Below are positions 325 through 20,410 of a stretch of 50,414 nt of DNA, in pieces. A program made the translations under genes and the position numbers. Location: positions 1-50,414 of the forward strand of contig JBHIAT010000004.1 of the NCBI GenBank assembly GCA_046758705.1, read 5' to 3'. The notes beneath the pieces are model-generated. The model made no database searches, was not told the origin of the DNA, and saw only the letters and a list, made by a program, of their open reading frames with translations. Numbering within the stretch: position 1 is the first letter of the stretch; every line of letters begins with the position of its first letter. The stretch comes from Candidatus Bipolaricaulia bacterium. Lineage in GTDB: Bacteria > Bipolaricaulota > Bipolaricaulia > JBHIAT01.

Positions 325-765
325 ATGCGTTGTCCGATGTGCCACATGACGCTGGATGCCACGGCCCAGGCACAAGCCTGCCGAAGCTGCCCGCTCTACC
401 GCTGGACCCGAGGCTGTCGCCTGCGGTTGATCCACTGTCCCGGTTGTGGCTACCACAGCCTGCCCATCGAGGAGGTTGCCAAACCCCAAGCTCCTCCGGC
501 TGTCGAGCCGCTTCCCATGAAGGGCAGCGGTGTGGCTCGTCCCCTGAGCGAGCTGGCGGTGGGCGCGCAGGCGCGTTTGCTCAGCTTCGATGGGCTCAAT
601 GACAAGGATTTACAACGCCTGATGGCCTACGGATTGGTCCCGGGCGTGCGCCTCAAGGTGCTCCAGCGCGTGCCAGCCTATATCCTCAAGGTCCACGAAA
701 CCGAGCTGGCCGTGGAGGGCGCCCTGACAAAGGCCATTTATGTCCTGTCTGACACCGCCGTGTGA
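325..765 (+). CDS. feoA: FeoA family protein with N-terminal Cys-rich extension
   Basis: C-terminal LSEL..G...RLMAYGLVPGVRLKVLQ FeoA SH3-like pattern; N-terminal CPMC, CRSC, C, CPGC. Confidence 0.8.
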   Translation: MRCPMCHMTLDATAQAQACRSCPLYRWTRGCRLRLIHCPGCGYHSLPIEEVAKPQAPPAVEPLPMKGSGVARPLSELAVGAQARLLSFDGLNDKDLQRLMAYGLVPGVRLKVLQRVPAYILKVHETELAVEGALTKAIYVLSDTAV

Positions 766-825
766 TCAAAATCATCGGCTTGTCTGCCTCAGATCATCGC
801 ATAACGGCGGGAATCCCCCTACAAT
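761..825 (+). promoter_or_regulatory. Putative CRP/FNR-activated promoter of the DOMON-Rieske-cyt b operon
   Basis: Boxes TGTGA-TCAAAA-TCATC (761-776) and TCTGC-CTCAGA-TCATC (783-798) 22 bp apart; -10 TACAAT at 820-825. Confidence 0.6.
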
Positions 826-883
826 AACGGATGATATATAACTATAATGATCAGGGGAAGCCAGTGCTTGAGGAGGTCATTCG

Positions 884-1870
884 GTGTCGAAAAATAGTCC
901 CTACCTGCCCCTGCTGGCGTTGCTGATCGCGGTGATTGGGGCGGTGGTCCTGGCGTTTCAGTGGGAGTTATTCGGAGGGAGGATGGGAGCGATTCATGCG
1001 ACGATCGACGGTCGGATCGACACCGACGAATACCCGAACCATTATCGCGACGGATCGATCGATATGGATGTCTACTGGATGGTCCACGGCGCCCAGATTG
1101 CTTTTGGCCTGAAGAGCCCGGCGCAGGGCTGGATGTCAATCGGGTTCGATCCAGACGGGCCGCTCATGAATGGGGCGGACATCATCATCGGGTCCGTCGA
1201 TGAGCAGGGACAGCCCCATCTCGAGGACAGCTTCTCCAACAGCCCCACCACTCATGTCCCCGACGCTGAGCTGGGCGGGCGAGACGATATCCTGGCATAC
1301 GCCGGGTTCCGGGATGAGTCAGGCACCGTCATCGAGTTCAGGAGGCCTTTGGAGACGGGAGATCAATACGATAAGCCGATGCAGGCGGGGCGGACGAGTG
1401 TGGTCATGCTCGGCTACGCTCAGGACGCATCGCTGACGGCGTACCACGGCCGTACCCGATCGATCGTCCCTATCGATCTGGGGATCGGAGCCGAAGGCGG
1501 TGCGCGTATCAGCGAGCTCAAGGCCTACGAGATTTGGGTGGTCGCTGTGCTGTTTCTGCTGGCCCTCTTCGGCCTCCAGGGACTGGCCTCGATCCGGCTA
1601 GAAGGGACGGAGCTAGAGCCCGACACCCGAAAGCAGGCGGGCCAACCGCTGGGTGCCGTGCTCGCCATCGGCGTCATGACGGCCGCAGTGATCTCGCTTG
1701 CTGTACTGTTCGTCTATGGGCTCTATGTCTCGGCCGCCTCACTCGGCAGACTCGCCAGTTACGCGGCGATCGGGTTCTTCCTCATGGGGGTCATCATGCT
1801 CATCTATCGTGGCTACTTCATCGACGATGAGGTGCAGGTCGAGGGACGGGACGAGGAGATCCCGTGGTAG
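884..1870 (+). CDS. Membrane-anchored DOMON domain protein (putative haem b binding) with three C-terminal TM helices
   Basis: N-terminal TM; DOMON signature GWMSIGFD...LMNGADIIIG...EFRRPL...YHG with Met and His at the usual haem-ligand positions; RBS GAGGAGG before GTG. Confidence 0.7.
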   Translation: MSKNSPYLPLLALLIAVIGAVVLAFQWELFGGRMGAIHATIDGRIDTDEYPNHYRDGSIDMDVYWMVHGAQIAFGLKSPAQGWMSIGFDPDGPLMNGADIIIGSVDEQGQPHLEDSFSNSPTTHVPDAELGGRDDILAYAGFRDESGTVIEFRRPLETGDQYDKPMQAGRTSVVMLGYAQDASLTAYHGRTRSIVPIDLGIGAEGGARISELKAYEIWVVAVLFLLALFGLQGLASIRLEGTELEPDTRKQAGQPLGAVLAIGVMTAAVISLAVLFVYGLYVSAASLGRLASYAAIGFFLMGVIMLIYRGYFIDDEVQVEGRDEEIPW

Positions 1871-1915
1871 GGAAGAGAGAATGAAAGAAATAGATGGTTT
1901 TAGGAAAGGAGACGG

Positions 1916-2551
1916 GTGATTCAAATGGACTCGGAGTCGGAGAAGACAGCGCTGGAGGATCGGGGTCGTGGGAAGGTTAGGATCAGCCGTCGGCGGCTGG
2001 TGCAATGGTTGATGGGGTTGGGGGCTGGAAGCCTGATCGCCTCGGTCCTGTCGATTCTCCGGTTCCTCAAGCCCTCCGAGGGAGCCGGAGAGGTCGGAGC
2101 GCTGATCTCGTCCGGGGATCGGCTGGTCTTCGCCCAGGGAGCGAACCGAGGGACGGTCATCACCCGAGAGAGCCTGGCTCCCGGTGAAGCGGTGCTCGTC
2201 TTCCCACAGGGAAAGGAGCAGATCGGGGATGCCATCATCCTCCTGGCCCGGTTCGACCCCGAGGTGCTTGAGCCGCCCACCCGGCTGGAGTGGACGGCGG
2301 TGGGATTCGTCGGTTACAGCGCCCTGTGCACACACCTCGGCTGCACGGTCCTGAAGAAGCTTGAAGCGGGGTTCGGCAAGGAGGGGATCATCCATTGTCC
2401 GTGCCATGCAGGTTTCTACGATCCGAAGCGGGGAGCCACAGTGATCAGCGGGCCGCCCCCCCGGCCCTTGCCCCAACTTCCCATCCGGATCAACGGTAAA
2501 GGTGAGATCGTCGCCGACGGCGACTTTGAGGAATCGGTCGGGGTGTTGTAA
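1916..2551 (+). CDS. qcrA: Rieske 2Fe-2S subunit of a quinol:cytochrome c oxidoreductase
   Basis: Tat motif SRRRLV, box 1 CTHLGC, box 2 CPCHAGFY, GPPPRPLP motif. Confidence 0.92.
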   Translation: MIQMDSESEKTALEDRGRGKVRISRRRLVQWLMGLGAGSLIASVLSILRFLKPSEGAGEVGALISSGDRLVFAQGANRGTVITRESLAPGEAVLVFPQGKEQIGDAIILLARFDPEVLEPPTRLEWTAVGFVGYSALCTHLGCTVLKKLEAGFGKEGIIHCPCHAGFYDPKRGATVISGPPPRPLPQLPIRINGKGEIVADGDFEESVGVL

Positions 2552-2576
2552 TATGAGGTCTCGGAAGGAGGCATTG

Positions 2577-3839
2577 GTGAGCGCGCACGGAAGCAGTGAA
2601 TCCGGATGGTTCGACGCGCGGCTGAACCTGGACCGATTTTCCAGAAAATATCTCAGAAAAGCATTTCCTGTCCACTCCACCTTCTTCCTCGGGGAGATCG
2701 CGCTGTTCAGCTTCATCATCCTGGTGATCACCGGCCTGTATCTGGCGTTCCTGTACGAGCCGTCGACGCAGCTGGTCGAGTTCAACGGGGAGCAGGTTCC
2801 GGCAGCCTACGTGAGTGTCATGCGAATCAACGACACGCCGTTCGGCCTGATCGTCCGTCGGGTCCATCACTGGTCGGCCCACATCATGATCGTCGCTGCG
2901 ATCCTACACTTGATGCGGATCTTCTTCACCGGCACCTATAAGAGACCGCGAGAGCTCAACTGGGTGGTGGGGTTCCTGCTGTTGATGGTGACGGTGGTGG
3001 CCTCGTTTGTCGGTTACCTGCTGCCGTTTGACGAGTTCTCGGTTACGGCAACGACGATCGGTTACGGGATCACCCGGTCGGTCCCCTGGATCGGGCCGGC
3101 GTTTGCCGACTTCGTCTTCGCCGGCAAGTTCCCGGCCCCGGGCACGATCCCGAGGTTCTTCGCCTACCATGTGATCTTGATGCCGCTGATCATCATCGGC
3201 CTGTTGACGGTCCATATGCTCATCTTGCTCAAGCAAAAGCACAGCGAACCGCCCTATGCCCGGGCGAAGACCCAGGGGACGAAACTCATCGGGGTGCCGG
3301 CTTGGCCACAGCAGACGGCGTTGATGGCCGCGCTGTTTCTGTTTCTGGTCGGAGGGGTGTTGCTCATCTCCGGCTTCCTGCCCGTCCATCCGGTGGAGCT
3401 CTACGGTCCGCCGCGACCGGGCACGCCAGTGGTAAAGCCGGATTGGTACTTCCTGTGGGTCTTCGGGGTGTTGAAGTTGATCCCGGGATGGATGGAGTTC
3501 CGGTTCCTGGGGACGACCATTGGCCCCGAGGCGATTGGCGGGGTCCTATTCCCGGGACTGGTCATCCTGCTCTTGTTGCTCATCCCGTTCATCGATCGGG
3601 CGGACACCCCCAAGTACTATATGGATGACCCGCTGCGCATACCGCTGAGGACCGCGATCGGGATCGGGATGAGCGTCCTGTTGCTCGTCCTGTCGCTCGC
3701 CGGCTATAAGGAGGAAGTGGGGCTGTCTTCAACGGTGTTGCGGATCATCGCGGTCGTGGCCCCGGTCGCCGTTGGGCTGATCAGCTACGGGTTGCTTCGA
3801 GGACTGAAGCGCACCGGGAGGAAACACCAGGGGGGGTGA
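2577..3839 (+). CDS. qcrB: Cytochrome b subunit (unsplit) of the Rieske/cytochrome b complex
   Basis: RRVHHWSAH, LHLMRIFFTGTYKRPRELNW, GYLLP, RFFAYH and Qo motif PDWY. Start placed at GTG 2577 after AAGGAGG; ATG 2553 is an alternative. Confidence 0.92.
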   Translation: MSAHGSSESGWFDARLNLDRFSRKYLRKAFPVHSTFFLGEIALFSFIILVITGLYLAFLYEPSTQLVEFNGEQVPAAYVSVMRINDTPFGLIVRRVHHWSAHIMIVAAILHLMRIFFTGTYKRPRELNWVVGFLLLMVTVVASFVGYLLPFDEFSVTATTIGYGITRSVPWIGPAFADFVFAGKFPAPGTIPRFFAYHVILMPLIIIGLLTVHMLILLKQKHSEPPYARAKTQGTKLIGVPAWPQQTALMAALFLFLVGGVLLISGFLPVHPVELYGPPRPGTPVVKPDWYFLWVFGVLKLIPGWMEFRFLGTTIGPEAIGGVLFPGLVILLLLLIPFIDRADTPKYYMDDPLRIPLRTAIGIGMSVLLLVLSLAGYKEEVGLSSTVLRIIAVVAPVAVGLISYGLLRGLKRTGRKHQGG

Positions 3840-3846
3840 AACGCCG

Positions 3847-5385
3847 ATGCGAAGGAACCGGTCGATTGCGATCCTGATCCTGACATTGATGGCCAGCCTG
3901 CTCGCTTATCTCGCCGACCGAGGGATGCCGGAGACGCGGGTCAGGCGAGAGGTAGAGATTCTGTTTCAGGAGGAGTGCGCAGCCTGTCATGGCGATCGAC
4001 GCCAGGGAGGGCTCGGTCCGGCACTTATCCCACAACGGCTGGCGACGCGGGGCGACGAGGAGTTGAAACAGATTATCCTGAATGGCATCCCCGGCACCGC
4101 CATGCCCGTCTGGCTCGATGTGCTGACCCGGGAGAACGTCGAGGAGCTTGTCCGGTTCATCAAGGAGGTCCCCCCCTCACCGGAAGCGCTGCGCTGGGGG
4201 ATGATGGACATCTGGGGGTCGTTTGAGGTGCTCATCTTCGACGAGGAACTCCCCGAGCAACCGGCCTACGAGATTCGCAGCATCGAGGATCTGATGGTGG
4301 TCACCGAGCGGGACGTCGGCCATCTGTTCTTCGTCGACGGCCACGAGAATCGGTTTCTGGGCCGCATCCTGGACGCAGGCTACAAGACGAATACGATCGT
4401 CTACGACCCGACCGACGAACGCTGGCTCTACCTGATTGCCAGGAACGGCTGGGTCTACAAGGTGGATCTGTACACGCTCCAGCCGGTCCGCAAGGTCCGG
4501 GTGGGGATCGACTCCCGAGGGCTGGCGATCTCCGCCGACGGCCGTTACCTGATGGCCGGCAACTACATCCCCAACAGCGCGGTGGTTCTGACCGCTGAGA
4601 CGCTGGAACCGCTGAAGCTCATCCGCACGTTCGGGGTCGATCCGGACGGCGAAGCGGTCGAGTCCCGGGTGAACTACGTGGCCTACACGCCCGCCGGCCG
4701 GGGTCGGTTCGTCCTGGTGTTGGAGGAGGCCGGTCAGGTGTGGCTCGTCGAGCCGTCGGCGAACTTTCCGATCGTTGCCACCATCGAGCAGGTGGGCCGC
4801 ACGCTTCAAGGCGGTCTGCTCACCTCCGCTGGTCGGCAGCTTGTGGTCGCCTCCCAGGGCGACGATCGTCTGGTGGCGATCGACCTGGAGGCGGAGCAAA
4901 TCGTCGATCGGGTCCTGACCGGCCGCCACCCCTACCTGAACGCTGAGGCGATCGTCCGAAGCGACGACCGGACCCTCGTCTTCACCCCATCCATTGGGAG
5001 TGATTATCTAACGGTCTGGGATCTTGACACCTTTGAAGTGGTCAGGCGGATCGAGATGGGGGGACCCAGCCTGTTCGTCGCCGCCCATCCGGAGAGCCCC
5101 TATGTCTGGGCGGATGTCGCACTTGGCCCGAACAACGACCGCATTCAGGTCATCGACAAGCAAAGCCTGGAGGTGGTGCGGACGTTGCGGCCGGGGATGA
5201 GATCGGTCCATCCGGAGTTCACTGCCGACGGCCGGCACGTCTACGTGAGCATCTGGGGAGAAGATCGGGTGGTCGTCTACGACGCGGACACGTTCGAAGT
5301 CATCGTGGAGTTCACCCGGGTGCGTACCCCCACCGGGATATTCTCCGCTCGGGTGAGACAGATCTCCCGACTTACCGGCATTTGA
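3847..5385 (+). CDS. Cytochrome cd1 (NirS/NirN)-like protein: c-type haem domain plus d1-type beta-propeller
   Basis: Signal/anchor, CAACHG..RQGGLGPAL, GIPGTAMP (Met ligand), propeller motifs (SRGLAISADGRY, LEPLKLI, SLFVAAHPESPYVWAD, HPEFTADG, TPTGIF). Canonical histidines appear substituted, so nirS is not assigned. Confidence 0.8.
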   Translation: MRRNRSIAILILTLMASLLAYLADRGMPETRVRREVEILFQEECAACHGDRRQGGLGPALIPQRLATRGDEELKQIILNGIPGTAMPVWLDVLTRENVEELVRFIKEVPPSPEALRWGMMDIWGSFEVLIFDEELPEQPAYEIRSIEDLMVVTERDVGHLFFVDGHENRFLGRILDAGYKTNTIVYDPTDERWLYLIARNGWVYKVDLYTLQPVRKVRVGIDSRGLAISADGRYLMAGNYIPNSAVVLTAETLEPLKLIRTFGVDPDGEAVESRVNYVAYTPAGRGRFVLVLEEAGQVWLVEPSANFPIVATIEQVGRTLQGGLLTSAGRQLVVASQGDDRLVAIDLEAEQIVDRVLTGRHPYLNAEAIVRSDDRTLVFTPSIGSDYLTVWDLDTFEVVRRIEMGGPSLFVAAHPESPYVWADVALGPNNDRIQVIDKQSLEVVRTLRPGMRSVHPEFTADGRHVYVSIWGEDRVVVYDADTFEVIVEFTRVRTPTGIFSARVRQISRLTGI

Positions 5386-5394
5386 ACGTTAGCG

Positions 5395-6126
5395 TTACAG
5401 AACGTTCTCCTTGAGCGCGACGAGAGGGGGAGATGAGAGCCGCTCCAGCCTTTCGAAGTCGGGGATCTTAATCCCGTCGTTGTGTTTGAGAAGACCTCTA
5501 CGATACAATTGACTTAAGATGCGGATAGCCGTCTCCGGGGAGACACCGGCCATCTCGGCCAGCTCTCTGCGCGTGAGTTCAATCTCTACCTCCAGACCAT
5601 CTGCTTCCTGAATCCCGTAGGCCCGTGCCAGACGCACCAGCACTCCGATCACCCGTTCCTTACTACTTCCATAGGTGGTTTCCGTGAGTTTGGCCTCGTA
5701 CCCCTTGAGCTCTCTGCACAGTTTCTCGACCAGTTTGAACCCGACGTCCGGATGCCGGTGGATCAGGTTCAGGAAGTCGCCCCGCCTCACGAACTTGACG
5801 GTCGTCGGTTCCAGAGCCCGAGCATCCGCTTGGTGGTACATGTCGCCGAACAAACTCTCCTCTCCTAGCACCTCTCCCGAGTCGAGCAGCTTCAGGATCC
5901 GTCGTTTTCCCTTCACTGAGCGCTTGACCAACTTCACCCGTCCGCTACAGATGATGTACAGACCAACCGCTGGACTTCCCTCTGGGAAGATGAGCTCATC
6001 CTGGGCATAAGTGATGGTCTTGGTCTCATCGATAAAGGCGAAGAACTCACCATCGTCAAGGTCCGAAAAGATCCAGGAGCAGCCTTTCGGACTCGGACAT
6101 TTGTCACAGACGAGATGTGCTGTCAT
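5395..6126 (-). CDS. CRP/FNR family transcriptional regulator with N-terminal Cys motif
   Basis: CDKCPSPKGC N-terminus, cNMP-binding domain (GLYIICSGRVKL...GEVLGE), HTH LTRRELAEMAGVSPETAIRILS. Confidence 0.92.
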   Translation of the reverse strand: MTAHLVCDKCPSPKGCSWIFSDLDDGEFFAFIDETKTITYAQDELIFPEGSPAVGLYIICSGRVKLVKRSVKGKRRILKLLDSGEVLGEESLFGDMYHQADARALEPTTVKFVRRGDFLNLIHRHPDVGFKLVEKLCRELKGYEAKLTETTYGSSKERVIGVLVRLARAYGIQEADGLEVEIELTRRELAEMAGVSPETAIRILSQLYRRGLLKHNDGIKIPDFERLERLSSPPLVALKENVL

Positions 6127-6156
6127 CGATCTCCCTTCTCTTCTTGATCGCTGTTG

Positions 6157-6435
6157 TCAGAAATCCTCGTCGGGTTTGCTGATCAATCCCCAGTTGTATG
6201 TCTGCCTTGACCAGGGTTTGGCGCGCCCCTCCTCCTGACAGAAAGCAAAGTCGCCACACGTCGGGGAGGCGTAGATATCATGGTTGAGCACTCGCTTGAT
6301 CGCACTGCGAATGCGGCCTTGAAACGCTTCTGATGGGGCATCGTACTGGTCAGTGATCTCATCCAAAACGGCCTTGGTGAGGTGATCGAGCAGTCCCTCG
6401 ATGCCAACCCGGTCCCAGACTCTAAAACCGGCCAT
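6157..6435 (-). CDS. Small hypothetical protein
   Basis: 92-aa ORF with RBS AGGAAGGAG between two co-oriented CRP/FNR genes; no family recognised. Confidence 0.6.
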   Translation of the reverse strand: MAGFRVWDRVGIEGLLDHLTKAVLDEITDQYDAPSEAFQGRIRSAIKRVLNHDIYASPTCGDFAFCQEEGRAKPWSRQTYNWGLISKPDEDF

Positions 6436-6466
6436 CTTCGACCACTCCTTCCTTAGATAAGATTTT

Positions 6467-7168
6467 CTATCTCTGTCTCTCCAAGCCTTCTCGATCGCAG
6501 ATGATGATCCGGCGGCGCTCCAGAGAGATCAGCTTTTGTTCCTTCAGATGACCCAATGCCCGGATAGCCGTCTCTGGAGCCACGCCGATCAGCTCCGCAA
6601 GTTCTATCCGTTTTAGCTCCACCCCGATCGTTGCACCGGAGGGTCTCTCCACCCCGAACCGGTCCGCCAGATCGAGCAAAACTCGGGCAAGCTTCGTCTC
6701 GATCGACAGGTAAGCGGCAGCTTCGGCCAATTCATTCCAGGCGTTTCTGAGATCGTCGGCGAGCTGAGCCACGATTCTGGGGAGGATGGAGGGATACCGG
6801 GCGATGAAGCGCAGGAAGTCCTCCCGCTCGATAAATCCCAATCGGGAGGGTTCCAGGGTCTTGGCGCAGGTTGCGTAGGTGTCGTCGTCAAACAGGGTGT
6901 CCAGGCCCAGGGTCTCTCCAGGGCCAAGGATCTTTAAGATTCTCGGTTTTTCAGCCCGCAGCTCCCTCATCAACTTGACCTTTCCTTCCAGGACGATGTA
7001 GAGGCCAAAGCTCGGAGCTCTCTGCTGGAAGATGAGCTCTCCATCTCCATAGTCGATGGATCTGATGCTAGTGTTAAGCTCTTCCCAGCTGAGATCGGAG
7101 AAGAGATCGATATCGATCTGCTGTAGCTCTCTTCTTTGTTTAGTTTGGGCGTCACCCATTTCCATCAC
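6467..7168 (-). CDS. CRP/FNR family transcriptional regulator
   Basis: cNMP-binding domain and HTH LKRIELAELIGVAPETAIRALG; close paralogue of 9344-10048. The true start may be a few codons downstream. Confidence 0.92.
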   Translation of the reverse strand: MMEMGDAQTKQRRELQQIDIDLFSDLSWEELNTSIRSIDYGDGELIFQQRAPSFGLYIVLEGKVKLMRELRAEKPRILKILGPGETLGLDTLFDDDTYATCAKTLEPSRLGFIEREDFLRFIARYPSILPRIVAQLADDLRNAWNELAEAAAYLSIETKLARVLLDLADRFGVERPSGATIGVELKRIELAELIGVAPETAIRALGHLKEQKLISLERRRIIICDREGLERQR

Positions 7169-7240
7169 CTCCTCTTCCCGTTGTCGTTCACCGAAACTTT
7201 AATGTGGGTTCAATGAGGTAAGTGGTTGAAATGGAATGGG

Positions 7241-7642
7241 TTACTCCAGCTGCACGCTGAATAGTATCTGTCTATCTGGGGCTGATGGTGAAGCGCTCGC
7301 CGTGGCGAGTCTATTGGTCATTAAGGTGGGTATGGAAGCGTCAGGGTTCCCTGCCGCCAGCCTCCGCTGGATCTCGACCTTGAACTTGTCTGTTTCAGAG
7401 CTACAGAGACGAGGCTGATCGGAGCCGGGAACGGCATTCGTGATGCAATCGCAAGGAGAACACAGATGGCACCGTTCGGAATGACGGTGGTCTGGCTCTC
7501 CATGGGAGTGGCAACAGACGTGTTCCTGGGTTCCGCGGATAGGATAGGCGGAGGCAGAATAGAAGGGAAAAATGGGCAGGATCAGGATCACAAAGAGAAA
7601 CATCGCAATGATAGCGAACGTCTCCTGACGTAAATAGCGCAT
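7241..7642 (-). CDS. Small exported His/Cys-rich protein
   Basis: N-terminal hydrophobic signal followed by HVCCHSHGEPDHRHSERCHLCSPCDC; starts right after the stop of the upstream gene. Confidence 0.55.
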   Translation of the reverse strand: MRYLRQETFAIIAMFLFVILILPIFPFYSASAYPIRGTQEHVCCHSHGEPDHRHSERCHLCSPCDCITNAVPGSDQPRLCSSETDKFKVEIQRRLAAGNPDASIPTLMTNRLATASASPSAPDRQILFSVQLE

Positions 7643-7643
7643 T

Positions 7644-8156
7644 TTAGGAGCTCATTATGTTATAGTCCTTCGATTCTCCGAATGAACCGCTCCTCCATCC
7701 CGGCTGTGGGGTCTCTACCAGCTCATCCCAGATGGCGTGAATCTCCTTGCTGAGCTTCTTCATGAGTTTATACAGCATGGAAGGATGCGTTTTGAGGAAG
7801 GCGAGCAGTGCGTTGCGATCGACGAACCCCAGCTCCGTAGGCTCCACAGCCCTGGAATCGGTGGAGAAGGCTCCCCGATAGAAGATCTCCTCACCCAGGA
7901 TCTCCCCCGGTCCGAGGAACTTCAAGCGGATCTGCCTCCCATCCTGCAGTCCCTGTACCAGTTCGACTCTCCCCTTCCAGATGATAAAAAGACCGGGAGC
8001 TGGATAGCCAGCTTGGAAGATCATCTCTCCCTTTCTGTATTTGAGCGGCTCCATCAGCGTCAGCAGCTCATCAAACGCACGATCGCTGAGCCCGGAGAAG
8101 ACCCGGAGGAAACGCCTTTGCTGGCCATCTTGAAACGGTGGTTTACTCATACTCAT
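7644..8156 (-). CDS. Cyclic-nucleotide-binding domain protein (CRP/FNR-like, lacks HTH)
   Basis: VFSGLS...GEMIFQAG...GLFIIWKGRVEL...GPGEILGE and C-helix present; the ORF ends before any HTH. Start set at ATG 8156, downstream of the predicted promoter. Confidence 0.75.
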   Translation of the reverse strand: MSMSKPPFQDGQQRRFLRVFSGLSDRAFDELLTLMEPLKYRKGEMIFQAGYPAPGLFIIWKGRVELVQGLQDGRQIRLKFLGPGEILGEEIFYRGAFSTDSRAVEPTELGFVDRNALLAFLKTHPSMLYKLMKKLSKEIHAIWDELVETPQPGWRSGSFGESKDYNIMSS

Positions 8157-8214
8157 CCTCGGCCCCCGTACCCTTCCAATGCCGGGGCTCTCCTTTTTGT
8201 GGCTTGCATTATCT

Positions 8215-8301
8215 ATTCTAATGGGGTGAGGCAAAGTTTGCTATGATTTTAAGCAGTCCAAAGGATGCGTTTGATCATGAAAAGGTGTTGGATTTCTCAC
8301 A
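8215..8301 (-). promoter_or_regulatory. Putative CRP/FNR promoter, triple box (repeat copy 1)
   Basis: -10 TAGAAT (8215-8220, minus strand); boxes at 8242-8257, 8264-8279 and 8286-8301 (TGTTGGATTTCTCACA), each 22 bp apart. Confidence 0.7.
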
Positions 8302-8319
8302 CGCTTCCCTACAGAATAC

Positions 8320-8362
8320 AGGAGAGCCCCGGACTCTGCTCTGATGCCGGGACTCTCCTTTT
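8320..8362. terminator. Stem-loop, possible intrinsic terminator
   Basis: AGGAGAGCCCCGG ... CCGGGACTCTCCT inverted repeat just past the stop of 8375-9181. The T-run is on the plus strand, so orientation is uncertain. Confidence 0.45.
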
Positions 8363-8374
8363 CCGTTCCTATTC

Positions 8375-9181
8375 CTACCCCAACTTCAAGGCGATCCAGA
8401 CGAAGTTCGTACTCTGCAAATGTCCGGCATCCGTCCAGCCGTTCGGCGTCTCGTCCGGATCCCAGTACGCCAACGCCAGCTGGTACGTTTCTCCAATGAG
8501 GAACTGAAGATCTTGAGGATCGCCGGTCTGCAACGGTCTTGACATCTCAAAGATGTAGACCCCCGGTGTCCCGTTGCCGCCCGCTTGGCCTGTGTGGCTC
8601 CAGGCGCCGGTGAGCTTGTTGTCTTGGTCGTCATCGTGTCGATCGAATGGTGTGGTGGCATACTCATCGTCGAAGTTTGCGTCGGGATCGTTCCCCCCTG
8701 CGCCTCCGGTAGAGCTGGCCAACCCTCCGGTCAGGACGCCCGGCGAGGTCTCAAGCTCCCAGTGCCAGATATCGACCATCCCCAGACTGGTGGACAGGTT
8801 CACCCCGTCCGTGCCCATGTGGGGACCGGCGCCCGCATCGATGGCGAACTGCACCGCGATGTGGCCCGACAGGTGGTGGTTCCCAATGACGAGGTCGTAA
8901 TCGTCCTGGATCTTGAGCAGGATGAACACCTGGTCATCGTTGTAGGCGGCTCTCAGCTCGACATCGACGAACCGGGTGGGGGGGCCGAAGGCCGGCACCA
9001 TAGAGACGGCCGTCCCCGGTATCCCGATCCAGTCGCTGGTATCGCCGTCGACGGTGATATCCGTTCTGACTGCCTGAACGGATACTATCGGTTCCCCGTA
9101 TGTGAAAACCGGCCATAGGACAATGAGAAGCCCAACACTTAACAACAGCGGTATAGATACTCCCTTCGTTCTTCTTGACAA
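8375..9181 (-). CDS. Exported haem b-binding DOMON-like protein (ethylbenzene dehydrogenase gamma / EB_dh family)
   Basis: Signal peptide; ITVDG...W, VELRAAYN...FILL, AVQF...HMG, VDIWHW, FEMSRPLQT, LALAYWD...H. Start at TTG 9181 after AAGGAGGTG. Confidence 0.7.
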   Translation of the reverse strand: MSRRTKGVSIPLLLSVGLLIVLWPVFTYGEPIVSVQAVRTDITVDGDTSDWIGIPGTAVSMVPAFGPPTRFVDVELRAAYNDDQVFILLKIQDDYDLVIGNHHLSGHIAVQFAIDAGAGPHMGTDGVNLSTSLGMVDIWHWELETSPGVLTGGLASSTGGAGGNDPDANFDDEYATTPFDRHDDDQDNKLTGAWSHTGQAGGNGTPGVYIFEMSRPLQTGDPQDLQFLIGETYQLALAYWDPDETPNGWTDAGHLQSTNFVWIALKLG

Positions 9182-9237
9182 TCGATCCACCTCCTTGAGA
9201 TTTGGTCCAGGTCGCTTGGCCATGACCATCATTATCC

Positions 9238-9324
9238 ACTCTAATGGGGTAAAGCGAAGTTTGCTATGATTTTAAGCAGGTTGAGAAATGCGCTTAGTCA
9301 TAGAGAGCTGTTAGATTTCTCACA
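9238..9324 (-). promoter_or_regulatory. Putative CRP/FNR promoter, triple box (repeat copy 2)
   Basis: -10 TAGAGT (9238-9243); boxes at 9265-9280, 9287-9302 and 9309-9324 (TGTTAGATTTCTCACA); aligns along its length with 8215-8301. Confidence 0.7.
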
Positions 9325-9343
9325 CTTGTGAGCGATTAGGACT

Positions 9344-10048
9344 CTACATTTTCCCCGCTAAGCCGTTTCGATCGCTGATGATGATCTGCCGACCCTCTAA
9401 GGTGATCAACCCTCGCTCCTTCAGTTGGCCCAACGCTCGAACCAATGTCTCTGGAGCCACCCCGATCATCTCCGCGAGTTCTATCCGCTTCAACCTCACC
9501 CCGATCACTACCCCGGAACGTCCCTCCACCCCGAACCGTTCCGCCAGATCGAGCAGAACTCGGGCAAGTTTCTCCCTGACCGACAGATAAGCAGCCGCTT
9601 CAGCCAATTCGTTCCAGGCGTCTCTGAGATCGTCGGCGAGCTGAGCCACGATCCTGGGAAAGATGCAGGAATGCTGGACAATGAAGCGCAGGAACTCCTG
9701 CCGTTCGATAAATCCCAATCGGGAGGGTTCCAGGGTCTTGGCACAGGTTGCGTAGGTAGCGCTGTCGAACAGGATATCCAGACCTAGAACCTCTCCAGGG
9801 CCGAGGATCTTTAAGATCCTTGATTTCTCAGCCTGCAGCTCCCTCATCAACTTGACCTTTCCTTCCAAGATGATGTAGAGGCCAAAGCTCGGAGCTCCCT
9901 GCTGGAAGATGAGCTCTCTACGTCCATAGTCGATGGGTTTGATGGTGGTGTTGAGTTCTACCAGCTCTTCTCGGCTGAGATCAGAGAACAGGGCGATATT
10001 GACCTTCAGTTTCCTCCACTGTTCAGATTGAGAGCGGTCTATTTTCAT
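9344..10048 (-). CDS. CRP/FNR family transcriptional regulator
   Basis: cNMP domain and HTH LKRIELAEMIGVAPETLVRALG; paralogue of 6467-7168. Confidence 0.92.
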   Translation of the reverse strand: MKIDRSQSEQWRKLKVNIALFSDLSREELVELNTTIKPIDYGRRELIFQQGAPSFGLYIILEGKVKLMRELQAEKSRILKILGPGEVLGLDILFDSATYATCAKTLEPSRLGFIERQEFLRFIVQHSCIFPRIVAQLADDLRDAWNELAEAAAYLSVREKLARVLLDLAERFGVEGRSGVVIGVRLKRIELAEMIGVAPETLVRALGQLKERGLITLEGRQIIISDRNGLAGKM

Positions 10049-10114
10049 GCTATCTTCCTAGATTTTCCTACCCACTATATGGGGAGTCATCCCCTTTAAA
10101 ACCTTTATCATCTA

Positions 10115-10179
10115 AATTTAATGGGATGGAACAAGAGTTGCAATGATCTAGATCATCTCAGTCTGTTAGATTTCTCACA
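10115..10179 (-). promoter_or_regulatory. Putative CRP/FNR promoter for 9344-10048
   Basis: -10 TAAATT (10115-10120); boxes at 10142-10157 (contains perfect palindrome ATGATCTAGATCAT) and 10164-10179 (TGTTAGATTTCTCACA). Confidence 0.7.
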
Positions 10180-10200
10180 CTACGGGAAGATCGCCGCAGC

Positions 10201-10266
10201 AGTGAGTTATCTCACAGATGATTTGTGAGAAACCTCACCGATAATCGAGAACCAATGGGGTAGAAT
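10201..10266 (+). promoter_or_regulatory. Putative CRP/FNR promoter for the HEAT-repeat gene (divergent)
   Basis: Boxes AGTGAGTTATCTCACA (10201-10216) and TGTGAGAAACCTCACC (10224-10239); -10 TAGAAT at 10261-10266. Confidence 0.7.
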
Positions 10267-10290
10267 CCATACCAGGGATTGTGAGAAAGA

Positions 10291-10767
10291 ATGGTGAGTA
10301 GAACAGCGCTGTCTTGGGTGCTTGTGACGTTAGTCGTATTAACAGGCGTCGTTGCCGCACACGCGGATCACAACCCAGAGATCAACGATCTCATCGAGGC
10401 ATTGCGAGATACGGAATGGCGGGTTCGCCGGAACGCTGCCGAGGCGCTGGGAGGGATTGGCCCGGACGCCTGGGAGGCGGTGCCCGTACTGATCGAAGCG
10501 TTGCGAGATGAAAAGTTGGAGGTTCGCTATTACGCCGCTGGAGCGCTGTGGGAGATTAGTCCTGGCACCCAGGAGGCGGTGCCCGCGTTGGTCGAGGCAC
10601 TGCAGGATGTGAACGGGGACGTGCGCAGGTTCGCCGCTTGGTTGCTGGGAGAGATGGGCCCTGACGCCCAGGAGGCAGTCCCTGCCTTGACCGAAGCGCT
10701 TCAGGACGAGGACGAGAGCGTGCGCCAGGCAGCCGCCGGGGCGCTTGAGAAGATCAGGGGTAAGTGA
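10291..10767 (+). CDS. Exported HEAT-repeat (PBS lyase-like) protein
   Basis: Signal peptide (AHA/D) and four repeats of the type LIEALRD...VRRNAAEALG..G...EAVP.L. Confidence 0.8.
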   Translation: MVSRTALSWVLVTLVVLTGVVAAHADHNPEINDLIEALRDTEWRVRRNAAEALGGIGPDAWEAVPVLIEALRDEKLEVRYYAAGALWEISPGTQEAVPALVEALQDVNGDVRRFAAWLLGEMGPDAQEAVPALTEALQDEDESVRQAAAGALEKIRGK

Positions 10768-10821
10768 GGCTCCCTGTCCCTTAAGCAACCTGTTCGGACC
10801 ATCGATCTTCCTGGAATTTTC

Positions 10822-11619
10822 CTACTCACCGTGGGGGTTCACCCCCAGCAGTTCCTCTATGCGGTGTTCAGCGTTGTGCGTATCTCCTGCAGCGAGGAGG
10901 TCCAGGGCCTTCTGGGCTTCGATCTTTTCTATGTCGGAGGCCAGCTCTATGAAGTGAGTGAGATGGTGCTGCGTTTCCTGGATATCATGATCGCGGACGG
11001 CCGTGAGCGCCAGCTCCAGATGGAACTGAGCCAGGGACTTGCCCTCCTGCTCAGCCAGGACTCCGACCATCTCCGCCAGCAGGTGCTCTGCCTCGTGGGC
11101 CTCGCCTGCGGCCAGCAGCTCGAGCACCTCCTCCATCTGGTGCTCATGCGCGTGCTCGTGGATAAAGTCCAGGGCGTGCTGGACGTGGTGGGCGGCATCC
11201 TGAAGGTCGTCCACCTTGATGGACTCTATAGCCATAAGGTGGTGGGCCAGCTCCGGCGCCTCCAGCTCGAACTCGTGGGCGTGCTCGCCCTCTAAGCTGA
11301 CGATGTAGGCCGCGATCTTCTCCAGGTCGTCATCGCTCAACTGGGTTGTAGAAAAGGCAGGCATGGCGCCCCGGGGGGTGCGTGTCTGTCTAAAGACGGC
11401 CTCCCGGGAGTGACCCGGCAGGGCGGGGGCAAAGGCGCTGCCTTCAGCATCCAGACCGTGACATGCGGCGCAGCCGAACCTCAAGAACAGGGTCTTGCCC
11501 GCCTCGATCAAGGCCATGTCTATATCCTCCTCGGCAGCCTCCTCGGTGACGGTCGCAGCCCCTAATAACAACGCCCCAGTGATCATGATCGCTAGTGTGG
11601 CACTAATCCTTTTTCTCAT
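10822..11619 (-). CDS. Monohaem cytochrome c with duplicated His-rich helical C-terminal domain
   Basis: Signal peptide, CAACHG, MPAF Met ligand, LSDDDLEKIAAYI; His/Glu-rich tail with two similar repeats. Start at ATG 11619 after GGAAGGAG. Confidence 0.8.
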   Translation of the reverse strand: MRKRISATLAIMITGALLLGAATVTEEAAEEDIDMALIEAGKTLFLRFGCAACHGLDAEGSAFAPALPGHSREAVFRQTRTPRGAMPAFSTTQLSDDDLEKIAAYIVSLEGEHAHEFELEAPELAHHLMAIESIKVDDLQDAAHHVQHALDFIHEHAHEHQMEEVLELLAAGEAHEAEHLLAEMVGVLAEQEGKSLAQFHLELALTAVRDHDIQETQHHLTHFIELASDIEKIEAQKALDLLAAGDTHNAEHRIEELLGVNPHGE

Positions 11620-11657
11620 GGTGCTCACTCCTTCCCTTTTCATTGCCATCGTTATTG

Positions 11658-11744
11658 AATCTAACGGATCAAAGCAAAATTTTCAATGATTTCGAGCAAT
11701 TCAAGGGGTGCGCTTGGTCATGAGAGGATGTTAGATTTCTCACA
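11658..11744 (-). promoter_or_regulatory. Putative CRP/FNR promoter, triple box (repeat copy 3)
   Basis: -10 TAGATT (11658-11663); boxes at 11685-11700, 11707-11722 and 11729-11744 (TGTTAGATTTCTCACA). Confidence 0.7.
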
Positions 11745-11889
11745 CTCTGGGAGGATCGCCACGGCGCAGAGGACAAGGTGGCGCGGGAGCGTTATGGAAA
11801 AGAGCGATGAACGGGTTGTGAAGATTTCAGGTAGGTGTTAAACTACCAGCGAGAACCGGCTTCAAACCTTTATGGGAAGTGGACTTTAC

Positions 11890-12588
11890 TCAATCTGCTC
11901 CAAGATGAGATGACCGCCGACATCGATTGCCTGTCACGGTCTCCGCCTCCGCCTGAGCGGAGCCGAAGTAACTGTTCATAAAACCGATCCGATTCAACGG
12001 CCAGACTCTGAAGAACGGCTCACCGATGAAATCGTCCTTGGAGACAAACTCCCAGAAGCGGCTGTCCAGGCTGTTGGGGCTGTTATCTCCGAGGACGAAG
12101 TAGGAGTCCTCGGGGACGATCCACTCCTCAAATCCCATGATCCCGGCGTTGCAGTAATAGCGATCGAACGCCTCGCCGACCAGTTTCTCCCCGTTCACGC
12201 GGACATCACCATTCTCAATCTGGACCCGTTGACCCTCGGTAGCGATCAGCCGTTTGACGAGGCGGAGCCGTTGTCCATTCTCCTCCTTACGCCAGAAGAC
12301 GATGATGTCACCCGGATTTGGCTCCCGGAATCGATAGGAAATCTTGTCGACGAAGAAGCTGTCCCTGGCCCGAATAGTCGGAACCATCGATCCGGTCGGC
12401 ACATTCACCCGCACTGTGACGAACGTTATCACTAACCAGGCCAACGCTCCGGCGATGGCGATCACCTCGACCCATCCCAGGATTCCATCAAGTCGTTGTG
12501 TCGTGCTCACTCCCAGTCGGTTCAGGATCTGCGCTAAATAGGATTTCTTTCGCTCTTTATCGGGCCGTTGTGCCTTGGATTCAGCCAT
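11890..12588 (-). CDS. lepB: Signal peptidase I
   Basis: TM helix then VPTGSMVPT (catalytic Ser), LVKRLIA (catalytic Lys), YFVLGDNSPNSLDSRFW. Confidence 0.93.
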   Translation of the reverse strand: MAESKAQRPDKERKKSYLAQILNRLGVSTTQRLDGILGWVEVIAIAGALAWLVITFVTVRVNVPTGSMVPTIRARDSFFVDKISYRFREPNPGDIIVFWRKEENGQRLRLVKRLIATEGQRVQIENGDVRVNGEKLVGEAFDRYYCNAGIMGFEEWIVPEDSYFVLGDNSPNSLDSRFWEFVSKDDFIGEPFFRVWPLNRIGFMNSYFGSAQAEAETVTGNRCRRSSHLGAD

Positions 12589-12610
12589 TTTTCTACGAAG
12601 AGATCTTAAC

Positions 12611-12834
12611 TTACTCTGTCACGACTGGCAAGATGAGTACGAAGGTCGCCCCGTGGCCCGGTTGGCTCTCGGCCCAGATGCGCCCGCCGTGGGCCTCGAC
12701 CAGCGCCTTGGCGATCGCCAGGCCTAACCCCGAGCCACCAGCTCGTGGGGATCGAACGGCTTGGGTACGTAATCGTCTGCACCCAACTCCAGGCCGACCA
12801 CCCGATCGGTCGTCTCGGTGCGCGCGGTGAGCAT
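12611..12834 (-). pseudogene. Remnant of an OmpR-type response regulator joined to the C-terminal remnant of a histidine kinase
   Basis: One frame reads [35 protein letters not shown] (receiver); an overlapping frame reads [38 protein letters not shown] (HATPase G2 box). Confidence 0.85.
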
Positions 12835-12855
12835 GAGGTGTCACCGAATTTTCTC

Positions 12856-15126
<2,271 letters not shown>

Positions 15127-18724: not shown

Positions 18725-19456
18725 TTACAGGACATTCTCCTTAAGCGTGATGGGAGGGGTTCTTGACAGCCGTTCCAATCCTTCAGGATTCAGAACCTTG
18801 ATCCCGCCATTGAGCTTAAGAAGGCCCCTACGATGAAGTCGGCTCAAAATGCGGATGGCTGTCTCCGGGGAGACACCGGCCATCTCGGCCAGTTCCCTGC
18901 GTGTGAACTCGATCTCTATGACCAGGCCGTCCGCTTCCTGGATCCCGTAGGCTCGTGCCAGACGCACCAGTACGCTGACCACCCGCTCCATACCACTTCC
19001 ATAGGTGGTTTCCGTGAGTTTGGCCTCGTACCCCTTGAGCTCTCTGGAGAGTTTTTCAACCAGCTTGAACCCAACCTCTGGATGCCGACAGGTCAGGCTC
19101 AGGAAGTCGCCCCGCCTCACGAACTTGACGGCTGTCGGCTTCAGGGTTTCAGCATCGGCCTGGTGGTACGTGTCGCCGAACAGACTCTCCTCTCCCAGCA
19201 CCTCTCCCGAGTCGAGCAGCTTTAAGATCCGTTGTTTCCCCTTGACCGAGTGCTTGACCAACTTCACCCGTCCCGCACAGACAATGTACAGACCTACCGC
19301 CGCATCCCCCTGTCGGAAGATGAGCTCACCCGGTCCATAGGTTTCATCCTGGACCCCATGGAGCAATCCGAAGAACTCGTCGTCGTCAAGGTCCGAGAAG
19401 ATCCACGAGCAGCCTTTTGGACTCGGGCATTCGGCACACATGAGATGCGCTGTCAT
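18725..19456 (-). CDS. CRP/FNR family transcriptional regulator with N-terminal Cys motif
   Basis: CAECPSPKGC, cNMP domain, HTH FTRRELAEMAGVSPETAIRILS; close paralogue of 5395-6126. Confidence 0.92.
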   Translation of the reverse strand: MTAHLMCAECPSPKGCSWIFSDLDDDEFFGLLHGVQDETYGPGELIFRQGDAAVGLYIVCAGRVKLVKHSVKGKQRILKLLDSGEVLGEESLFGDTYHQADAETLKPTAVKFVRRGDFLSLTCRHPEVGFKLVEKLSRELKGYEAKLTETTYGSGMERVVSVLVRLARAYGIQEADGLVIEIEFTRRELAEMAGVSPETAIRILSRLHRRGLLKLNGGIKVLNPEGLERLSRTPPITLKENVL

Positions 19457-19714: not shown

Positions 19715-20410
19715 ATGGCCGAAGTCGATCGCTGTCTATACTGCGAGTTAGATGGCCGGTGCGTGTTACTTGATCTGAGCCGTCAGGAGTTCTCGTTCCG
19801 ACCTGAGGAGTTCACCAGGGTCCTTGACTACGAGACAGGAGAGACCATCCTCAAGGAGGATGCCCCTCTCTATGGTTACTACATCATCTGCAAGGGCAAG
19901 GTCAAGCTGGCCCGGCGCACCACGAGCGGGAAACGGTTCACCTTCGAGATTCTCGGACCCGGCGATATCTTAGGGATCAGCGCGCTGGCCCAGAATCGAC
20001 AATACCAGGCCTACGCCGAAGCCCTTGAGCCCACTCAGATCGGGTTCGTCGATCACCGCGATTTCGAACAGTTGCTTGCTAAGTACCCCGCTCTGTCCGC
20101 TGCGGTCTTGGCCAAGCTCGCCGAAGAGGTGCAAGAACTCCGTGACCGACTTTTCGAGGCCTCGCATAAAGGGGCGAAGCAGCGGCTCGCCTACCTGCTG
20201 CTCAAGCTGGGAGAGCGGTACGGTGTTCAAACACAAGACGGCATCGTCATCAACGTGCCGCTCTCGCGCACCGAGCTGGCCGACCTGATCGGCGTTGCCC
20301 GTGAGACCGTCAGCCTGAACATGAGTGCACTGGAACAGCGCGGGCTGATTATCTCGGAGAAGGGGCGGATCATCATCCGGGACGAACCCAACCTGCGGCA
20401 GATGTTGTGA
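19715..20410 (+). CDS. CRP/FNR family transcriptional regulator with N-terminal Cys motif
   Basis: CLYCELDGRC, YYIICKGKVKL, HTH LSRTELADLIGVARETVS. Confidence 0.92.
   Translation: MAEVDRCLYCELDGRCVLLDLSRQEFSFRPEEFTRVLDYETGETILKEDAPLYGYYIICKGKVKLARRTTSGKRFTFEILGPGDILGISALAQNRQYQAYAEALEPTQIGFVDHRDFEQLLAKYPALSAAVLAKLAEEVQELRDRLFEASHKGAKQRLAYLLLKLGERYGVQTQDGIVINVPLSRTELADLIGVARETVSLNMSALEQRGLIISEKGRIIIRDEPNLRQML

Follow-up and report, generated by a model that had tools for sequence, protein, structure and literature searches.

A cytochrome cd1-family protein with replaced pocket histidines, encoded directly after DOMON, Rieske and cytochrome b genes in a Candidatus Bipolaricaulia genome

The window analysed here, a stretch of 50,414 nucleotides from a Candidatus Bipolaricaulia bacterium (assembly GCA_046758705.1, contig JBHIAT010000004.1), carries at 3847-5385 of the forward strand a gene whose 512-residue product, P0001, belongs to the superfamily of cytochrome cd1 proteins (NirS/NirN/NirF). 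P0001 is probably not a canonical haem d1 nitrite reductase, because the residue corresponding to the fifth ligand of haem d1 and both substrate-binding histidines are replaced (His182, His327 and His369 in NirS numbering) and neither NirJ nor a sirohaem decarboxylase was found in the genome. That it is not a nitrite reductase had been inferred in an earlier note on the same DNA. We favour, with a probability of roughly 45%, the reading that P0001 is a remodelled member of the superfamily that serves as an electron-transfer module tied to a quinol-oxidising complex, the genes of which precede its own. As judged from the aligned residues, its pocket is unable to bind haem d1 in the manner of NirS, NirN and NirF, or to coordinate nitrite in the manner of NirS.

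Replacement of the three histidines

The available text of PMC7278500 names His182 of NirS as fifth ligand to haem d1, His327 and His369 as the residues to which the substrate nitrite binds, and Arg156, Arg198 and Arg372 as those that hold the haem's acetate and propionate groups. For NirF, the available text of bioRxiv 10.1101/2020.01.13.904656 reports two equivalent histidines that ligate iron, the exchange of either of which abolishes tetrapyrrole binding, and both are said there to be conserved in NirN and NirS.

In pairwise HMMER alignment, where the chain numbering of P. aeruginosa NirS equals the mature numbering, GYAVH182 of NirS is matched by GYKTN182 of P0001, FLH327DG by TLQ321GG, and PH369PG by PY363LN. 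The site of the proximal haem d1 ligand is thus occupied by Asn182 (AAT, 4390-4392), and the NirS pair His327-Asp328 by Gln321-Gly322 (4807-4812, with Gln321 encoded by CAA at 4807-4809). The third site is situated in the loop H361-P-Y363-L-N-A-E367 (4927-4947), which in the family reads x-P-H-P-G-S-G and in which Tyr363 (TAC, 4933-4935) takes the place of NirS His369 and NirF His238; all these positions are on the forward strand. The alignment to NirN (6RTD) agrees with that to NirS for the first and third sites. Asn, Gln and Tyr had been assigned to the three sites by eye in the earlier note; the codons as well as HMMER and MAFFT alignments lead to the same assignment, and no histidine of P0001 is placed at a ligand or catalytic site by alignment to NirS or NirN. 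A contrast in all three histidines holds for NirS, but not for NirN, the nearest solved relative, which itself has Asp at the second site. The neighbouring histidine noticed two residues from the third site, His361 (CAC, 4927-4929), indeed pairs with the NirS Thr two residues before His369 and not with His369.

In the 92-row family alignment, column 182 is His in 87 rows and Asn in P0001 only. In column 321, His is found in 61 rows, Asp as in NirN in 21, Leu in four and Gln in one, and column 322 contains Asp in 82 and Gly in 7. At column 363, His occurs in 83 of the 92 rows and Tyr in 5, every one of the latter belonging to the subclade of P0001. His361 and the replacement of Gly365 (G365N) and Gly367 (G367E) are restricted to P0001.

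Independently assembled Logan contigs of three public runs, all belonging to a single hydrothermal-vent study, match the window letter for letter over 3800-5400; two of these contigs span the interval entirely and the third misses about 20 bases. Due to this identity in three runs, an assembly error as origin of the substitutions is ruled out, even though the runs may represent the source sample.

Architecture and predicted fold of P0001

The gene (3847-5385, forward strand) is an intact frame of 512 codons with a Shine-Dalgarno-like sequence, GGGGGGTGA, 8 bases 5' of the start codon, and encodes a membrane anchor, a monohaem cytochrome c and an eight-bladed cd1-type beta-propeller. The monohaem cytochrome c model Cytochrome_CBB3 of Pfam matches residues 35-105 (47.7 bits), and Cytochrom_D1 (PF02239) matches residues 146-501 (256 bits, 363 of 368 profile positions), while no NCBIfam model scored above its cut-off on P0001. 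The c-haem motif C44-A-A-C47-H48 (3976-3990, forward strand) and the distal ligand Met86 (4102-4104) are intact, as had been noted before, with C44, C47, H48 and M86 each occupying a column with a conservation of at least 90% in the family alignment.

Among solved structures, strong HMMER matches to P0001 are limited to the three haem d1 propeller proteins. The best one is NirN 6RTD (E 1.6e-66), followed by NirS (2.8e-42, with a range of about 1e-42 to 1e-38 for Pseudomonas and Paracoccus NirS) and NirF (1e-37). An AlphaFold 2 (AF2) model built on 92 aligned relatives reached a mean predicted local distance difference test (pLDDT) value of 93.3 and shows an N-terminal helix at residues 2-25, ahead of the helical cytochrome domain and the strands of the propeller. 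Foldseek ranked NirN first for this model, with template modelling (TM) scores of 0.83/0.91 and 31-32% identity, and next NirS (chains at 0.72-0.77) and NirF (0.63/0.85); the ESM Atlas search recovered the cd1 family only. The N-terminal helix is predicted to anchor the protein to the cytoplasmic membrane on its outer side.

Family placement and conservation of the pocket

A search of 5.8 billion proteins yielded 109 relatives of P0001 at E <= 1e-10, and a full scan of cluster representatives 112 at E <= 1e-30. The maximum-likelihood tree was calculated from 90 rows, the partial rows P0023 and P0067 being dropped. A split with support 100 separates the NirN clade (23 rows, His/Asp/His at the three sites) from the other 67 rows, which include P0001. 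Canonical NirS forms a small distinct group, and a clade of 60 rows contains mainly Chloroflexota-type sequences that are nearly all His/His/His. P0001 is located within this clade, in a 14-row set with support 98, where it groups (SH-aLRT, the approximate likelihood-ratio test, 91) with P0009, P0007 and the protein of a metagenome locus termed L072. All three are His/Leu/Tyr, and the neighbours of this group in the surrounding clade are His/His/His. The same His/Leu/Tyr state was observed for P0023, from a Candidatus Bipolaricaulia metagenome-assembled genome (MAG), and for its full-length cluster mate P0382. The subclade thus comprises five further sequences, which are 52-60% identical to P0001 and retain the proximal His that is replaced in P0001 only. 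Broader relatives (40-55% identical) derive mostly from Chloroflexota MAGs, and some of them are fused to cupredoxin domains. Due to its presence in relatives of only 52-60% identity, the state common to the subclade, i.e., loss of the distal His-Asp pair and change of the third His to Tyr, is on sequence grounds an old one.

Other parts of the pocket are kept. Arg155 (4309-4311), Arg199 (4441-4443), Arg224 (4516-4518) and, just beyond the latter, Tyr240 (4564-4566), all on the forward strand, align with Arg156, Arg198, Arg225 and Tyr245 of NirS and are conserved throughout the subclade. They are mostly lost in P0127, P0128, P0146 and P0159, four sequences on long branches unrelated to P0001 in which all three histidines were lost independently. 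Among the 62 columns with a conservation of at least 85%, P0001 deviates at seven (182, 322, 324, 363, 365, 367, and 408); the median for the family is 2 deviations, and rows of canonical NirS reach 16 because the other clade outweighs them in the alignment. We read all seven deviations as falling in the pocket loops that carry the three histidine sites. The kept arginines and Tyr, the confinement of the changes to these loops, the intact frame and the confident fold suggest that the pocket was remodelled rather than decayed. The intact c-haem site and the loop-bound deviations also fit the earlier description of P0001 as a repurposed cytochrome c plus propeller.

Alternatively, P0001 might be a cofactor-less pseudo-enzyme, in which the propeller would be a scaffold or docking platform only and the c-haem domain would do all redox work as an anchored cytochrome c. 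We regard this as somewhat unlikely. It would agree with the loss of both equivalents of the NirF iron ligands, either exchange of which abolished tetrapyrrole binding in NirF, with the d1 pathway not being found in the genome, with the repeated origin of members without the three histidines (P0127, P0128, P0146, and P0159) and with the intact c-haem site of P0001. Unlike these four rows, however, the subclade keeps Arg155, Arg199, Arg224 and Tyr240, and seven deviations that all lie in pocket loops, together with a Tyr fixed at the third site, look like selection on a new pocket and not like drift.

It is even less probable that P0001 is a decaying paralogue, recently acquired, redundant with a His-complete copy on another contig of the genome (C84, see below) and heading for loss. 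We consider this highly unlikely. Besides the canonical second copy, the near-absence of cd1-like genes from the rest of the phylum, the terminal branch of P0001, which is the longest of its subclade (0.6), and the codons of Asn182, Gln321 and Tyr363, each separated from a His codon by a single base change, would be in line with such a fate. Against it stand the uninterrupted frame with its Shine-Dalgarno-like sequence, the retention of 55 of the 62 conserved columns, the high confidence of the predicted fold and the age of the His/Leu/Tyr state.

Any tetrapyrrole that is still held in the pocket of P0001 would not be ligated in the cd1 manner and is probably not haem d1. If one is held by the arginine cradle, Tyr363, which is fixed in the subclade, would be a candidate ligand, perhaps together with His361, which probably faces the same side as it is only two residues away. 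In the nearest relatives, the column of His361 contains Lys.

These residues also bear on the proposal that P0001 is a small-molecule reductase or oxidase acting on nitrite, NO, O2, hydroxylamine or another substrate, with Tyr363, His361 and Gln321 as a new catalytic set on a differently ligated haem. In its favour, the carboxylate-binding arginines are kept, His361 was gained only in the protein that lacks His182, the operon would supply electrons, and six genes of CRP/FNR-family regulators are situated nearby. Regulators of this family accompany nir genes in denitrifiers. Nevertheless, we find the proposal very unlikely, with Lys at position 361 of the nearest relatives and no precedent in the literature searched (subscription journals were outside its scope). 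We know of no cd1-fold reductase with such a Tyr/His/Gln set. Furthermore, both histidines described in the available text of PMC7278500 as coordinating nitrite, His327 and His369, are gone.

Haem d1 biosynthesis in this genome and in genomes of relatives

The genome of the window is a MAG of 319 contigs with 93.9% completeness and 4.7% contamination. None of the approximately 50 open reading frames scanned in the window matches a haem d1 biosynthesis family, in accordance with the earlier note. In the genome scan, the best match to NirJ reached 203.8 bits and thus stayed below the cut-off of 515.45, and PF17805 (sirohaem decarboxylase) had no match in this 93.9%-complete genome. As a positive control, a Hyphomicrobiales genome with a NirN-like gene (G189) gave a NirJ match of 590.5 bits. 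The best NirJ-matching gene and a second radical-SAM gene rather have the look of the AhbD/NirJ2/TIGR04053 type, and one of them is located in a coproporphyrin-type haem operon. A complete operon of this kind is present on contig C134 (L016, 127-9682), where HemA, HemB, HemL, HemC, HemD, HemE, a HemY-like oxidase and ChdC are encoded along with a radical-SAM/SPASM protein of TIGR04053 (470 bits, above cut-off) that is also AhbD-like.

Strong Cytochrom_D1 matches in the genome are restricted to P0001 (contig C4) and a gene on contig C84, and no propeller-only Cytochrom_D1 protein exceeds 33 bits. The C84 paralogue (9852-11435, L014) has 527 residues, is 44% identical to P0001 and contains all three histidines; its gene adjoins a CopD-like fragment and unknown genes. 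At E <= 1e-30, NirJ was found in none of the five Chloroflexota genomes that carry His-complete relatives (L017-L021), one of which is a closed chromosome. Since the His-complete C84 protein and all five Chloroflexota genomes share it, the missing d1 pathway does not set the His-less P0001 apart, and the whole Chloroflexi-type NirS-like clade may be independent of the known haem d1 pathway.

Propellers of the cd1 type with all three histidines, devoid of a CxxCH domain, were also observed in dozens of Patescibacteria/CPR (candidate phyla radiation) genomes (loci L022-L067, e.g., L022 at 5759-8086, L023, L028, and L041), in open frames of about 700-800 residues. For one cluster of this type, the Atlas label is a fusion of cytochrome b5 and Cytochrom_D1, and P0097 carries PF00173. 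NirJ was found in none of three small genomes (G190-G192, of which G190 is labelled Gammaproteobacteria).

The DOMON-Rieske-cytochrome b module

The start codon of P0001 is located 8 bases past the stop codon of a cytochrome b gene of the same orientation. P0001 closes a run of genes that is followed by a gene on the opposite strand. Three genes precede it, all on the forward strand. The first (884-1870) encodes a DOMON-domain membrane protein of 328 residues (Pfam DOMON, 76.4 bits). The second (1916-2551) encodes a Rieske [2Fe-2S] protein with a twin-arginine leader (RRRL) and CTHLGC and CPCH boxes, recognised by Pfam Rieske and, below cut-off, by a QcrA-type NCBIfam model (98 bits). The third (2577-3839) encodes the cytochrome b, annotated in the database with 420 residues from GTG 2577 and with an in-frame ATG at 2553, which matches Pfam Cytochrom_B_N_2, Cytochrome_B and Cytochrom_B_C and a QcrB-type NCBIfam model below its cut-off (304.7 bits). 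Relatives of this cytochrome b are 55-66% identical and include proteins of Bipolaricaulia/Acetothermia MAGs. From this arrangement, P0001 is very probably co-transcribed with the other three genes, and the 8-base gap makes it plausible that P0001 is the electron acceptor of the module, as the earlier note had considered. A Pfam scan of the run found no other c-type cytochrome.

An orthologous cytochrome b (55-64% identical) occurs in nine other genomes of the phylum at 10 loci (L090-L099). In all 10, Rieske and DOMON genes are located directly upstream, and in none of them is a cd1-like gene present or a recognisable c-type cytochrome next downstream. The 3' side of these cytochrome b genes varies: in some cases nothing follows, in others a gene for a copper ATPase or for a Psr-like molybdoenzyme, or a second cytochrome b gene accompanied by multihaem cytochromes. 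Short open reading frames directly downstream of cytochrome b in these loci have no family match and no CxxCH; a lone CxxCH was seen in one short frame, the second downstream in L094. Except for P0001, cd1-like genes are nearly absent from the phylum, being found in none of 60 class relatives and in a single one of 183 other genomes (G119, 35% identical), which makes 2 of 184 genomes including this one. P0001 thus looks like a lineage-specific add-on to the module, as far as gene content can tell.

The AF2 model of the DOMON protein has a pLDDT of 64.9 overall, with beta-sandwich blocks mostly at 65-89, an N-terminal helix (residues 7-33) and three C-terminal helices (214-241, 256-281, and 287-313). 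Foldseek related it to haem-b cytochromes, namely the cytochrome domain of pyranose dehydrogenase, EbdC (2ivf_C) and the cytochrome domain of cellobiose dehydrogenase, and Met95, His124 and His188 are invariant in all four sequences compared. In several related loci the gene is split into a DOMON part (about 210 residues) and a membrane part (about 120 residues). Due to its retention in 10 of 10 loci that lack a c-type cytochrome and a cd1-like gene, the DOMON protein, predicted to be of haem-b type, is the conserved candidate for the role of cytochrome c1, and the trio may constitute a Rieske/cytochrome b complex with a haem-b DOMON subunit in this role. A complex prediction with cytochrome b, the DOMON protein and residues 1-130 of P0001 gave a score of 0.00 and counts neither way.

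In the earlier note, P0001 itself had been tentatively suggested to replace cytochrome c1; on this reading it would be a core subunit which receives electrons straight from the Rieske cluster. The gene immediately follows that of cytochrome b, the protein carries the only c-type haem of the operon and is predicted to be membrane-anchored, and c-type cytochromes also come after cytochrome b in two other modules of the genome (contigs C222 and C16). As stated, however, this suggestion does not stand up to the comparison of loci. The orthologous module occurs 10 out of 10 times, in nine genomes, with neither a cd1-like gene nor a recognisable c-type cytochrome directly following it, and it is the DOMON protein that combines conservation with a haem-b cytochrome domain fold and invariant Met and His residues. 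A cytochrome c1 equivalence of P0001 is therefore decidedly unlikely in our view.

Proposed electron path and its weighing

If P0001 is a remodelled electron-transfer module, as we favour, cytochrome b and the Rieske protein would oxidise quinol, and the high-potential electron would leave via the Rieske cluster to the haem b of the DOMON protein, the stand-in for cytochrome c1. From there it would reach, at the membrane surface, P0001 with its c haem, an acceptor or relay specific to the lineage, and go on to the propeller pocket or to another acceptor, e.g., the single caa3-type oxidase of the genome. The latter is encoded on contig C80, where CtaD exceeds its cut-off of 670.75 with 738.8 bits and CoxB has a C-terminal cytochrome c domain. 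The propeller pocket would have been rebuilt, with the carboxylate-binding arginines kept and the His-Asp pair, the distal His and, in P0001 alone, the proximal His replaced.

It is tempting to speculate that P0001 and its His/Leu/Tyr relatives represent a new class of the cd1 fold that holds a tetrapyrrole other than haem d1 in the arginine cradle, bound by Tyr363 (plus His361 in P0001), and that here this class is hard-wired to a DOMON-type Rieske/cytochrome b complex as an undescribed quinol:acceptor oxidoreductase with a haem-b DOMON subunit replacing cytochrome c1. This more specific proposal is an unlikely one. Among the papers listed in the literature searches, none described a Rieske protein combined with cytochrome cd1 or a DOMON-Rieske-cytochrome b arrangement.

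Several observations weigh against the favoured reading of P0001 as a remodelled module of a quinol-oxidising complex. The d1 genes count as not found rather than absent, in a MAG of 319 contigs with 4.7% contamination and in searches that did not cover NirE/SUMT, and His-complete relatives likewise occur in NirJ-less genomes, which leaves the normal cofactor of the clade itself uncertain. The loss of the proximal His was observed in a single sequence and could be recent and deleterious. Among 51 loci of relatives (32-49% identical), none has a Rieske, cytochrome b or DOMON gene within 7 kb. L072, the only subclade member with readable context, also sits in a different gene setting. This locus, the one true result of a motif-specific scan of metagenome contigs (the other match, L071, was due to chance), encodes a protein 90% identical to P0007, and its cd1-like gene lies between genes for a GltD-like oxidoreductase and a periplasmic binding protein. 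In detail, on the reverse strand at 681-13681, the gene for a membrane protein with cupredoxin and Fer4_5 domains comes first and is followed by those for a dihaem cytochrome c and a GltD-like NAD(P)H oxidoreductase, by the cd1-like gene with its His/Leu/Tyr set and by a frameshifted gene for a periplasmic binding protein; farther on, a second GltD-like/ferredoxin fusion and, 7 kb away, a seemingly frameshifted cytochrome b were seen.

P0023 (MFQ6116755.1) and P0264 (MFQ6116686.1), a cytochrome b 66% identical to that of the window, are proteins of Candidatus Bipolaricaulia MAGs with nearby accessions on different contigs. The closeness of the accessions is a hint of shared synteny, not evidence for it.

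Comparison with known systems

NirN, the dihydro-haem d1 dehydrogenase of P. aeruginosa (6RTD/6RTE), has the same plan as P0001, a monohaem cytochrome c joined to an eight-bladed propeller, and likewise lacks a His at the site of NirS His327, where Asp is found in NirN and Gln in P0001. In contrast to P0001 with Asn and Tyr, it has His at columns 182 and 363. P0001 also falls outside the well-supported NirN clade (100) and reads TLQGGLL where this clade has LDDFFF, and a d1 pathway that a NirN could serve was not found in its genome.

NirS of P. aeruginosa (1NIR/1BL9) and Paracoccus (1QKS/1AOF) shares with P0001 the fold, the order of domains, the c-haem ligands and the equivalents of Arg156, Arg198, Arg225 and Tyr245. 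The differences are His182 to Asn, His327-Asp to Gln-Gly and His369 to Tyr, and Arg372 is represented by Ala in P0001 and by Ser in most of its clade. Furthermore, NirS is soluble, whereas P0001 is predicted to be membrane-anchored. P0001 nests in the clade of Chloroflexi-type NirS (C2-NirS and C1-C2-NirS; Schwartz et al. 2022), whose members, according to the available text of PMC8756737, conserve the equivalents of His182, His327 and His369, in contrast to Asn, Gln and Tyr in P0001. Unlike P0001, the Chloroflexi-type relatives do not adjoin Rieske or cytochrome b genes in any of the 51 loci. NirF (6TV2) has the propeller of P0001 but no cytochrome c domain, and in some species it is reported to be membrane-anchored, as is predicted for P0001; the two iron-ligating histidines that it needs for tetrapyrrole binding (available text of bioRxiv 10.1101/2020.01.13.904656) are both gone in P0001.

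With cytochrome c1, cytochrome f and actinobacterial QcrC, P0001 shares the gene position, one c haem, a single predicted anchor and the location at the outer face. The fold of these c-type subunits is unrelated, and P0001 possesses a propeller of 380 residues besides. In addition, P0001 is not conserved with the module (0 of 10 related loci), and its similarity to QcrC is weak and sub-threshold (16 bits).

Implications for nirS surveys

Metagenomic surveys of denitrification routinely count matches to Cytochrom_D1 or NirS models as nitrite reductases. P0001 is, by its model, a well-folded and probably functional cd1 member that would be unable to work as NirS, and the set of histidines was lost several times in the family. 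Due to this case and the repeated losses, nirS calls in Chloroflexota, Bipolaricaulota and similar lineages need checks at the level of residues. In practice, P0001 is most useful as a caution when nirS genes are counted, and it offers access to two questions, the cofactor of its clade and the working of DOMON-type modules. Since the His-complete relatives examined also occur in NirJ-less genomes, the cofactor of the large Chloroflexi-type cd1 clade has become a testable question. The conserved trio without a c-type cytochrome suggests that electrons leave this Rieske/cytochrome b complex through a haem-b DOMON subunit, and that various acceptor modules can be attached to it.

Further cytochrome b modules and neighbouring genes

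Besides the module of the window, four others with a cytochrome b are present in the genome (five cytochrome b genes in total; L074-L077), each with a different set of partners. On C222, a multihaem c-type cytochrome directly follows cytochrome b. The C16 module comprises a Rieske gene, split b6 and subunit IV genes and three multihaem cytochromes, one of which, of c type, comes directly after the split-off C-terminal subunit. On C120, Rieske and cytochrome b genes are followed by RnfC-like and RnfD-like genes, and on C53 a DOMON gene, a cytochrome b and a pyridine-nucleotide-disulfide oxidoreductase (flavoprotein) occur together, with no Rieske gene seen.

Downstream of P0001, six genes of CRP/FNR-family regulators are located within 15 kb. 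The first (5395-6126, reverse strand) has the Pfam domains cNMP_binding and HTH_Crp_2, and the others lie at 6467-7168, 7644-8234 (cNMP_binding only), 9344-10048, 18725-19456, and 19715-20410. CRP/FixK/FNR-type NCBIfam matches were all below cut-off for the three regulator products scanned. Situated among the regulators are genes for an EB_dh protein (haem-b, like the gamma subunit of dimethyl sulfoxide reductase; 8375-9232), a HEAT-repeat protein (10291-10767) and a membrane cytochrome c (10822-11649); a catalytic molybdoenzyme subunit was not found near this region of the window. A promoter scan returned four promoter-like sites against 1.1 expected, none of them upstream of the operon, and a weak terminator-like hairpin is located at 5460.

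On the 5' side of the run, FeoB and FeoA genes are present, which relatives do not have conserved at this position. FeoB, truncated at its 5' end by the start of the window, is followed at 325-765 by the gene of a FeoA-domain protein whose N-terminus is extended by about 45 residues rich in Cys (CxxC ... CxxC ... CxxC), an extension that resembles a zinc ribbon.

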